11,561 nucleotides of DNA from a virus (taxonomy: Duplodnaviria; Heunggongvirae; Uroviricota; Caudoviricetes). Where the stretch lies: the IMG/VR virus record IMGVR_UViG_2695420422_000005; one strand, written 5' to 3'. Shown in pieces: positions 3,001 to 6,000 of the stretch. Made by a program: the position numbers. The stretch's first letter is position 1. Each line of letters opens with the position of its first letter.

Positions 3001-6000
3001 AATCCTCCGGCTCCGAGACGGTGCTGGGTACGGAAGTGAAATATGACACGCCGATCACCCGGACCATCACGTCGGCAAACATCGACCGTCTGCGCCTGAC
3101 CTTCGGTGTGCAGGCACTGGTGGAAACCACCTCAAAGGGTGACCGGAATCCGTCGGAAGTCCGCCTGCTGGTTCAGATACAGCGTAACGGTGGCTGGGTG
3201 ACGGAAAAAGACATCACCATTAAGGGCAAAACCACCTCGCAGTATCTGGCCTCGGTGGTGGTGGATAACCTGCCGCCGCGCCCGTTTAATATCCGGATGC
3301 GCAGGATGACACCGGACAGCACCACAGACCAGCTGCAGAACAAAACGCTCTGGTCGTCATACACCGAAATCATCGATGTGAAACAGTGCTACCCGAACAC
3401 GGCGCTGGTCGGCGTGCAGGTGGATTCAGAGCAGTTCGGTAACCAGCAGGTGAGTCGCAATTATCATCTTCGCGGGCGCATTCTGCAGGTGCCGTCGAAC
3501 TATAACCCGCAGACGCGGCAATACAGCGGTATCTGGGACGGAACGCTTAAGCCAGCATACAGCAACAACATGGCCTGGTGTCTGTGGGACATGCTCACTC
3601 ATCCGCGCTACGGCATGGGGAAACGTCTTGGTGCGGCAGATGTGGACAAATGGGCGCTGTATGTCATCGGCCAGTACTGCGACCAGTCAGTGACGGACGG
3701 ATTTGGCGGCACGGAGCCGCGCATCACCTGTAACTCTTACCTGACCACACAGCGTAAGGCGTGGGATGTTCTCAGTGATTTCTGCTCGGCGATGCGCTGT
3801 ATGCCGGTATGGAACGGACAGATGCTGACGTTCGTGCAGGACCGACCGTCGGATAAGGTGTGGACCTATAACCGCAGTAATGTGGTGATGCCGGACGATG
3901 GCGCGCCGTTCCGCTACAGCTTCAGCGCCCTGAAGGACCGCCATAATGCCGTTGAGGTGAACTGGATTGACCCAGATAACGGCTGGGAGACGGCGACAGA
4001 GCTTGTGGAGGATACGCAGGCCATTGTCCGTTACGGTCGTAACGTCACGAAGATGGATGCCTTTGGCTGTACCAGCCGGGGGCAGGCACACCGAGCCGGG
4101 CTGTGGCTGATTAAAACGGAACTGCTGGAAACGCAGACCGTGGACTTCAGCGTGGGCGCAGAAGGGCTTCGCCATGTACCGGGTGATGTCATTGAAATCT
4201 GCGATGATGATTATGCCGGTATNNNNNNNNNNNNNNNNNNNNNNNNNNNNNNNNNNNNNNNNNNNNNNNNCGGGGGCAGGCACACCGCGCCGGGCTGTGG
4301 CTGATTAAAACGGAACTGCTGGAGACGCAGACCGTGGATTTCAGCGTGGGTGCTGAAGGGCTTCGTCATGTACCGGGCGATGTCATTGAAATCTGCGATG
4401 ATGACTATGCCGGTATCCGCACCGGCGGGCGCGTGCTGGCGGTGAACAGCCAGACCCGGACGCTGACGCTCGACCGTGAAATCACGCTGCCATCCTCCGG
4501 CACCACGCTGATAAGCCTGGTTGACGGGCAGGGGAATCCGGTCAGCGTGGAGGTCCAGTCCGTCACCGACGGCGTGAAGGTGAAAGTGAGCCGGGTTCCT
4601 GACGGCGTTGCAGAATACAGCGTGTGGGGGCTGAAGCTGCCGACGCTGCGCCAGCGTCTGTTCCGCTGCGTGAGTATCCGTGAGAACGACGACGGCACGT
4701 ATGCCATCACCGCCGTGCAGCATGTGCCGGAAAAAGAAGCCATCGTGGATAACGGGGCGCACTTTGACGGCGACCAGAGCGGCACGGTGAATGGTGTCAC
4801 GCCGCCAGCGGTGCAGCACCTGACTGCCGAAGTCACCGCAGACAGCGGGGAATATCAGGTGCTGGCGCGCTGGGACACGCCGAAGGTGGTGAAGGGCGTG
4901 AGCTTCCTGCTCCGTCTGACCGTAACAGCGGATGACGGCAGTGAGCGGCTGGTCAGCACGGCCCGGACGACGGAAACCACTTACCGCTTCACACAACTGG
5001 CGCTGGGGAACTACAGGCTGACAGTCCGGGCAGTAAATGCGTGGGGGCAGCAGGGCGATCCGGCGTCGGTATCGTTCCGGATTGCCGCACCGGCAGCGCT
5101 GTCGCGGATTGAGCTGACGCCGGGCTATTTTCAGATAACCGCCACGCCGCATCTTGCGGTTTATGATCCGACGGTACAGTTTGAGTTCTGGTTCTCGGAA
5201 AAGCGGATTGCGGATATCAGGCAGGTTGAAACCACAGCACGCTATCTTGGCACGGCGCTGTACTGGATAGCCGCCAGTATCAATATCAAACCGGGCCATG
5301 ATTATTACTTTTATATCCGCAGTGTGAACACCGTTGGCAAATCGGCATTCGTGGAGGCTGTTGGTCAGCCGAGTGATGATGCATCCGGTTATCTGGATTT
5401 TTTCAAAGGCGAGATAGGGAAAACCCATCTGGCTCAGGAGCTGTGGACGCAGATTGATAACGGTCAGCTTGCGCCTGACCTGGCTGAAATCAGGACGTCC
5501 ATTACGGATGTCAGCAATGAAATCACGCAGACCGTCAATAAGAAACTGGAAGACCAGAGTGCGGCAATTCAGCAGATACAGAAGGTTCAGGTTGATACAA
5601 ATAATAACCTGAACAGCATGTGGGCTGTGAAGCTGCAGCAGATGCAGGACGGACGCCTTTATATCGCGGGTATTGGTGCCGGTATTGAGAACACCCCTGA
5701 CGGCATGCAGAGTCAGGTGCTGCTGGCGGCGGACAGGATTGCGATGGTTAATCCTGCGAATGGCAACACAAAACCGATGTTTGTTGGTCAGGGCGATCAG
5801 ATATTCATGAACGACGTGTTCCTGAAACGCCTGACGGCCCCCACCATTACCAGCGGTGGAAATCCATCGGCATTTTCCCTGACTCCGGACGGAAAGCTGA
5901 CCGCTAAAAATGCGGATATCAGTGGCAGTGTGAATGCGAACGCCGGGACGCTCAACAATGTCACGGTAAATGAAAACTGTACGATTAAGGGCATGCTGGA

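Follow-up and report, generated by a model that had tools for sequence, protein, structure and literature searches.

A J gene split by an N-run in a Shigella sonnei-type draft scaffold is very probably a false join of contigs from two lambda-like prophages

Introduction

In a viral record of 11,561 nucleotides, analysed here over its whole length and called the window below, the tail gene J is interrupted by a run of Ns, and nearly the same 146 bases of J stand on either side of the interruption. The question raised by this locus is whether the split is a property of a real J gene or a product of the way in which the record was put together. A gap between duplicated copies has been described as a sign of false duplication in draft assemblies (Ko et al., 2022, Genome Biol 23:205, PMC9516828), and the authors of a pipeline combining Velvet, SSPACE and GapFiller warn that false joins can result from the use of these greedy tools (Page et al., 2016, PMC5320598). 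A sequence-only reading of the window had proposed that the scaffold connects contigs derived from different J copies; its claims are taken up below together with the results that bear on them.

Results

The window is a draft scaffold with a lambda-type tail module

Over all 11561 bases the window is byte-identical to the draft scaffold CXAZ01000129.1 of GCA_001251955.1, and it is one complete scaffold from a short-read draft assembly of a Shigella sonnei-type strain. A literature search on the accession prefix CXAZ01 found no paper. The scaffold consists of two contigs whose outer ends are located at insertion sequences and whose inner ends are located in the middle of J (Table 1). The start of the window corresponds, in closed genomes, to position 9291 of locus L108, directly beside HTH_Tnp_1/rve transposase genes of an IS3-family element that we take to be IS600-like. 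On the other side, the window ends at a point equivalent to L098:14462, 8 bases ahead of an InsA/IS1 transposase gene, and its terminal sequence is presumably that of IS1.

Table 1. Features of the window; A and B denote the two prophages to which the left and the right contig were matched
Feature	Position	Strand	Prophage	Basis or remark
IS3-family insertion sequence, terminal bases; left end of contig and scaffold	1-32			Closed-genome mapping
Tape-measure protein H, C-terminal remnant (121-aa ORF)	7-372	+	A	Cut by IS
M	372-701	+	A	Phage_min_tail
L	711-1409	+	A	Phage_tail_L
K	1414-2157	+	A	Prok-JAB/NLPC_P60
I	2094-2696	+	A	Lambda_tail_I
J_A 5' part, residues 1-488 and two bases of codon 489; end of left contig	2757-4222	+	A	Prophage A match
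Three patches of J_B bases in the J_A contig (3236+3265; 3359; 4027+4043)	3236-4043	+	A	Versus closed genomes
146-mer, left copy: J_A allele, haplotype AACCACTT at 8 variable sites	4077-4222	+	A	Here the same as closed-genome J_A, L126 and L127
Scaffold gap, 48 N, not real sequence	4223-4270			N-run in window
146-mer, right copy: J_B allele, haplotype CGTTTTCC	4271-4416	+	B	Here the same as closed-genome J_B
J_B 3' part, residues 441-1165; start of right contig	4271-6448	+	B	Prophage B match
Patch of J_A bases, 7 sites, in the J_B contig	4582-4658	+	B	Versus closed genomes
lom, 160 aa, short at C-terminus	6519-7001	+	B	Pfam Ail_Lom, profile positions 1-159 of 199
stf, side tail fibre, 1027 aa	7100-10183	+	B	Pfam phage_tail_N, Phage_fiber_2, Collar
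tfa, tail fibre assembly gene, 193 aa	10183-10764	+	B	Pfam Caudo_TAP and gene calls
IS1 copy (presumed), first 48 bases; right end of contig and scaffold	11514-11561			Closed-genome mapping

The genes M, L, K and I were assigned by gene calls and Pfam searches on the identical record CXAZ01000129.1 (L123) and on closed genomes. A Pfam search with the 121-aa ORF at the left end gave no match; the ORF aligns with the tape-measure protein of prophage B (853 aa) at residues 799-850 of the latter, with E = 4e-13. The short lom gene of 160 aa is likewise found in closed genomes, and closed chromosomes with exactly the Stf protein of the window are numerous, HE616528.1 of S. sonnei 53G being one of them. 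Both J fragments, as well as the intact genes of the closed genomes, gave Pfam matches above the curated cut-offs for domains of the gpJ family, and in the window as in both closed-genome prophages J is located 3' of M-L-K-I and 5' of lom and stf. FNIII-A_GpJ and Phage-tail_3 were detected in the left fragment and Phage-tail_3, Ig_J, Ig_J_second, Phage_Tail_Tip and Ig_GpJ_C in the right one, and jointly the two fragments hold the full domain set of lambda gpJ. Also, the genes of the window follow the lambda order M-L-K-I-J-lom-stf-tfa. The proteins themselves are ordinary, and the split belongs to neither of the two J genes described below.

Two alleles of the same 146 bases flank the N-run

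The window contains a single N-run. When the 146 bases preceding it (4077-4222) were compared with the 146 bases following it (4271-4416), an ungapped agreement at 138 of 146 positions was obtained. Other overlap lengths across the N-run gave about 25-35% identity, which corresponds to background, and the 146-base match is far beyond chance. The copies differ at 4094/4288, 4130/4324, 4145/4339, 4157/4351, 4160/4354, 4172/4366, 4184/4378 and 4211/4405, and all eight differences affect the third codon position and are synonymous (left/right copy: cga/cgc, gaa/gag, gac/gat, ggc/ggt, gca/gct, cgc/cgt, ggt/ggc and gat/gac). Either 146-mer encodes the identical 48 residues, 441-488 of J. If 8 random substitutions were placed in the 146-base segment, not one of 200,000 simulations led to an exclusively synonymous outcome. 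The sequence-only reading had reported the repeat with its eight silent third-position changes, and we found it exact down to the codons; its further claim that the changes reflect genuine alleles and not random error is borne out by the simulations and by the recurrence of both haplotypes elsewhere, each with its own flanks.

The spacing between the copies amounts to 194 bases (194 mod 3 = 2). Each 146-mer keeps the J frame found on its side of the gap, the left one in the ORF starting at 2757 and the right one in the ORF ending at 6448, and the N-run therefore holds no frame information. The change of the J frame is due to the arbitrary 48-N gap together with the 146-base overlap, and to nothing else; if both contigs were placed on one J, the distance between them would be -146. 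A doubled segment is also evident at the level of domains. In Pfam PF13550 (Phage-tail_3; 164 positions) the left J fragment spans positions 1-152 and the right fragment restarts at 108-162, indicating two coding copies of one and the same domain segment. Merging the fragments over the overlap gives an open J sequence of 1165 codons plus stop.

A frameshifted or split J pseudogene was considered and rejected: no frame disruption occurs in real contiguous sequence, and J is intact in relatives. The earlier advice to read J neither as two genes nor as a frameshifted pseudogene was sound, given the open merged sequence and the intact J of relatives. Its caution about the merged length of roughly 1165 aa was justified insofar as this length cannot be ascribed to any real gene, and can now be replaced by the real lengths of 1159 and 1165 aa.

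The two contigs match different prophages

In closed chromosomes, prophage B loci were traced by the exact Stf protein and prophage A loci by the exact L protein of the window. The left contig (1-4222) is 99.8% identical to prophage A of closed S. sonnei-type chromosomes (L108-L117) over 4222 of 4222 bases without a gap, whereas its identity to prophage B is 94.9% for 2439-4222 (the J 5' part) and 89% for L-K-I. Conversely, the right contig (4271-11561) is 99.90% identical to prophage B of closed genomes (L098-L103; 7291 bases, 7 mismatches, ungapped) and 91% identical to prophage A over its first 1.7 kb or so. Prophage A comprises the H remnant, M, L, K, I, J (1159 aa), lom (199 aa) and an stf that is cut by an insertion sequence. 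Prophage B comprises H (853 aa), M, L, K, I, J (1165 aa), lom (160 aa), stf (1027 aa) and tfa. The presence of both prophages in one chromosome was demonstrated for one closed genome, CP104423.1, where they lie in the same orientation about 676 kb apart with an intact J in each; the left contig has its counterpart at about 1,990,813-1,995,034, the right contig at about 1,307,770-1,315,060. Prophage B is also present in S. sonnei 53G (HE616528.1).

According to these comparisons, the join of the window halves appears to be false, or at least unsupported. The assignment of the left side to prophage A and of the right side to prophage B confirms that the scaffold joins contigs of different J copies, as had been proposed, and the supposed origin of the alleles from two related lambdoid prophages is met by the pair in CP104423.1. 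The same reading had suspected that the stretch from H through the J 5' part and the stretch from the J 3' part through tfa might not be contiguous. This holds, as they belong to different prophages, but what had been called H is only the IS-cut 121-aa C-terminal remnant.

When the entire window and either flank were searched against complete genomes of E. coli, a collection that consists of E. coli records only, the best identities were 95-98.4%. Exact matching of a degenerate 146-mer against the GTDB species-representative genomes gave no hit. When a 704-aa ORF of the J 3' part (4334-6445) was looked up, no record was found; the gene call of CXAZ01000129.1 itself begins at 4271.

Each allele keeps its own flanks in other sequences

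The first 3000 bases of J_A and J_B form an ungapped alignment of about 94% identity, with a longest identical run of 86 bases, and the codons of the two genes show 138 synonymous versus 56 nonsynonymous differences. The two genes are either old paralogs or relatives that were acquired independently, and purifying selection acts on them. Eight silent differences within 146 bases are found because J_A and J_B differ mostly at synonymous sites.

Screening of IMG/VR with the degenerate 146-mer led to 97 loci. The left haplotype AACCACTT was found in 4 independent contigs, and in these the upstream sequence is 99.7-99.8% identical to the left flank of the window and the downstream sequence shares just 94-96% identity with the right flank. 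The right haplotype CGTTTTCC was found in 18 loci with the reverse flank pattern. Both haplotypes also occur in closed chromosomes, invariably with their own flanks, and a hybrid with left-type upstream and right-type downstream sequence was found in none of the 97 IMG/VR loci. The constant pairing of allele and flank in IMG/VR indicates that both alleles are genuine and that each is bound to its own J lineage. Natural mosaic haplotypes of the 146-mer do exist in IMG/VR, for example CGCCACCC. In five IMG/VR contigs the sequence starts 9-19 bases upstream of the 146-mer, within a run of 50 bases over which A and B do not differ, which points to a recurrent break point of short-read assemblies. 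IMG/VR relatives with single-N positions were checked for the same flank-overlap artefact and none showed it; these positions appear to be ambiguous bases or other join types.

Sister assemblies break and join J at varied positions

In the public collection, the K protein encoded at 1414-2154 is rare (26 blocks), and it was through this protein that CXAZ01000129.1 was traced. The same rare variant is encoded in nine further draft assemblies, which places these in the lineage of the window. In three assemblies without Ns (L125, L126 and L127), the equivalent of the left contig runs through an intact J_A of 1159 aa and a lom of 199 aa into the N-terminus of stf. The 3' continuation of J_A in these three assemblies matches the arrangement of the closed genomes, with stf truncated.

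Other sister scaffolds (L118, L119, L121, L122 and L124) contain N-runs of 1-67 bases, which link A-type and B-type pieces at varied J positions and with differing overlaps. In one join the left flank ends at J 1562 and the right flank starts at 1400 (overlap of 163 bases), in another these positions are 2081 and 1144 (938 bases), and in a third 2225 and 2138 (88 bases). A whole J_A followed by a 3' piece of J_B was also seen, as was an arrangement in which the entire prophage A contig is nested within a broken J_B, and one sister record even carries a fused 'J' of 1512 aa. Since the join positions vary among such close relatives, they indicate a misled scaffolder and not a fixed real structure.

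Discussion

How the join may have arisen and what else could explain it

We consider it very probable that the split J and the 146-base repeat are an assembly artefact, in which contigs of two lambda-like prophages of one S. sonnei-type draft genome were joined; the strain would have at least two prophages of this kind. On the scaffold an N-run separates the two copies; the differences between the copies occur elsewhere as separate genuine sequences; contiguous relatives (CP104423.1, L125-L127) carry one copy per locus, with the two flanks of the window at separate loci; and in other assemblies of the lineage the breaks and joins are found elsewhere.

The false join may have been formed as follows. 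Contig 1 (1-4222) would represent prophage A from the IS boundary to the middle of J_A, and contig 2 (4271-11561) prophage B from the middle of J_B to the IS1 boundary. Read pairs that cross-map between the two J genes of about 94% identity probably linked these contigs, and a greedy paired-read scaffolder would then have estimated a positive gap and written 48 N. End extension or gap filling may have taken each contig 146 bases into the stretch of the other. Both 146-mers were retained unmerged because they differ at the 8 paralog-specific synonymous sites. Judging from the accession series and from the look of the scaffold, the software was probably a pipeline of the Velvet/SSPACE/GapFiller type, and sister records with the accession prefixes CXAQ-CXCH show the same N-run behaviour as CXAZ01000129.1. 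The window resembles what is produced by SSPACE and GapFiller after Velvet (PMC5320598) in that N-runs of variable estimated length occur within a repeat family, and steps like those supposed above are described for that pipeline, which dates from the same period.

As to the exact contig ends, the left contig stops 2 bases short of the next A/B difference and the right contig starts 17 bases ahead of its first A/B difference, within the 50-base identical run. The contig extensions into the two insertion sequences are unequal as well (48 versus 32 bases). No single k fits the ends at 4222 and 4271, and the idea that they are simple de Bruijn junctions of J_A with J_B was discarded.

The case can be compared with the false 'heterotype' duplications described by Ko et al. 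(PMC9516828). In those as in the window, one scaffold contains two variant versions in succession, separated by a gap; the variants are real, and together the two versions mimic a duplicated or broken gene. In contrast to the two haplotypes of a diploid, the versions in the window are paralogs of two resident prophages of a haploid genome, and the artefact is therefore also a false join of loci that lie 0.68 Mb apart.

A real join would be a recombinant prophage in which the 5' part of J_A is fused to the 3' part of J_B, the second 146-mer having been added by gap filling from leftover reads that belong to another J copy. The two genes would be suitable for homologous recombination, with 94% ungapped identity and identical runs of up to 86 bases, and mosaic 146-mer haplotypes such as the one from IMG/VR given above are natural. 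However, with the two prophages arranged as direct repeats at a distance of 676 kb, a crossover would delete or duplicate the interval between them. Moreover, the hybrid was found in 0 of 97 IMG/VR loci and in 0 of 20 closed and draft loci, J_A is intact in assemblies of the same lineage, and the 'joins' of A and B at many different points in sister scaffolds fit the behaviour of software and not a fixed recombinant. We thus regard a recombinant J as very unlikely. A mixed culture or a contamination would equally give two alleles of one gene in one assembly, with the alleles coming from two strains instead of two prophages of one genome. Such a mixture is not needed, as a single closed chromosome has both alleles in its resident prophages, and with the same prophage pair present in many sister assemblies it is highly improbable.

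The head-to-tail arrangement of the copies at a distance of 194 bases might also suggest a real tandem duplication within J, of 146 bases plus 48 under the Ns, that had turned the gene into a frameshifted pseudogene. We judge this extremely improbable: the copies are exact alleles of the two prophages with matching long flanks, the sequence is A-type for 4.2 kb left of the gap and B-type for 7.3 kb right of it, a young duplication would not differ at 5% of its sites with all differences synonymous, and no such duplication is present in any closed or gap-free relative. Finally, the near-identity of the copies, and nothing else, would agree with one real sequence in which the 8 differences are sequencing or consensus errors, and the chance of this is practically negligible in view of the 8 synonymous third-position changes out of 8, set against 0 in 200,000 random trials, and of the exact recurrence of both haplotypes in independent assemblies.

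Consequences for users of the records

With the false join as the preferred explanation, the split J is not a biological feature and nothing new; what is present are ordinary genes of the lambda gpJ family, located in a tail module of the usual lambda type. The practical warning is that CXAZ01000129.1 and several sister records are chimeric prophage scaffolds, examples of the latter being CXBT01000039.1, CXAW01000054.1, CXBU01000118.1, CXBN01000105.1 and CXCH01000121.1. The automated annotation of CXAZ01000129.1 contains false split J 'genes' of 515 and 725 aa. Automatic annotation of such records leads to false prophage gene contents and to false evidence for recombinant tail modules, and it can mislead users in prophage typing, in pangenomes, in the prediction of host range from J or stf and in pseudogene counts for Shigella.

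Allele patches within the contigs

Wherever a window base within J is unlike all closed genomes, the other prophage has, without exception, this same base at the corresponding site. The patches of J_B bases in the left contig are delimited by runs identical in A and B of 74, 39, 47, 44, 52 and 50 bases, the patch of J_A bases in the right contig by runs of 47 and 79 bases, and the switches sit at the longest A/B-identical runs. None of the five B-type bases of the left contig was found in L127 (a gap-free draft with the unrelated accession prefix ABYQUW), L125, L121, L118 or the closed genomes, and the subset of swapped J_A-contig sites is different in each sister assembly. The patch at 4582-4658 is partial in L118 and absent from L122 and from the closed genomes. 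A 7-mismatch identity (98.83%) of the downstream sequence was observed in 13 of the 18 IMG/VR loci with the right haplotype.

In our reading, the patches stem from a short-k de Bruijn graph in which paths were switched or bubbles collapsed. The other conceivable origin, for which we see a slim chance, is that the host-specificity genes of the two resident prophages are still undergoing genuine gene conversion with each other, at 3236-3265, 3359, 4027-4043 and 4582-4658. If this were true, each isolate of the S. sonnei lineage would carry different conversion tracts. Independently of the join between them, both contigs are slightly chimeric themselves, through these small A/B allele swaps.

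Assembly breaks within J and at insertion sequences

The window joins a left contig from prophage A and a right contig from prophage B, two lambda-like prophages of S. sonnei-type chromosomes, and a 146-base stretch of the tail-tip gene J (the 146-mer) occurs on either side of the gap, once as the allele of J_A and once as that of J_B, the J genes of the respective prophages. Five independent IMG/VR contigs (L077, L003, L046, L088 and L080) start 9-19 bases upstream of the 146-mer, and all five starts fall in a 50-base run in which J_A and J_B are identical; this run is a recurrent break point of short-read assembly in J. 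Another IMG/VR contig (L010; 2718218172_000004) has 11 isolated single-N bases at about 9637-11520, in the stretch of about 2.4 kb that precedes the 146-mer in J, and these are possibly ambiguous consensus calls at positions where the J paralogs differ. The outer ends of both contigs are insertion-sequence boundaries, and the contigs reach into these repeats to unequal extents.

Features of the window
Feature	Position	Remark
IS3-family element end	1-32	scaffold begins 32 bases inside
ORF of 121 aa	7-372	C-terminus of H
lom of prophage B	6519-7001	160 aa
Stf	7100-10183	
IS1 end	11514-11561	scaffold ends 48 bases inside

Allele patches and chimeric scaffolds

B bases occur within the A contig and vice versa, in patches at 3236-3265, 3359, 4027-4043 and 4582-4658. 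Every patch is flanked by the longest runs of A/B identity, and the set of swapped sites is different in each of the sister assemblies, which are other drafts of the same lineage; we read the patches in the window as allele swaps made by the assembler. Further chimeric A/B scaffolds were found among sister drafts, namely L122 (2757-7295 of CXBN01000105.1), L118, L119, L120, L121 and L124. They include a fused 'J' of 1512 aa, a prophage A contig nested in a broken J_B and a duplication of genes M-L, and such records give a wrong gene content for prophage A and prophage B alike.

Lineage marker and gene content

Compared with closed genomes, gene K carries three substitutions (1989, 2000 and 2046), resulting in a rare K protein variant present in 26 blocks of the collection, versus thousands for L and Stf. 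Because independent assemblies have this variant in common, it is a real lineage marker.

Of the tape-measure protein H, the ORF at the left end retains no more than the very C-terminal end; it aligns to residues 799-850 of 853. Insertion sequences have cut off the head and most tail genes of prophage A, leaving a remnant. The lom product of prophage B matches the Ail_Lom profile, which has 199 positions, only over positions 1-159; the lom product of prophage A has 199 aa. Since the short form was found in every closed genome seen, it appears to be a C-terminal truncation that has been conserved. In Stf, no Pfam family covers a long alanine/serine-rich, repeat-like part (residues ~110-460) that follows phage_tail_N and precedes the fibre repeats, and long spurious ORFs run over this part on the reverse strand and in other frames.
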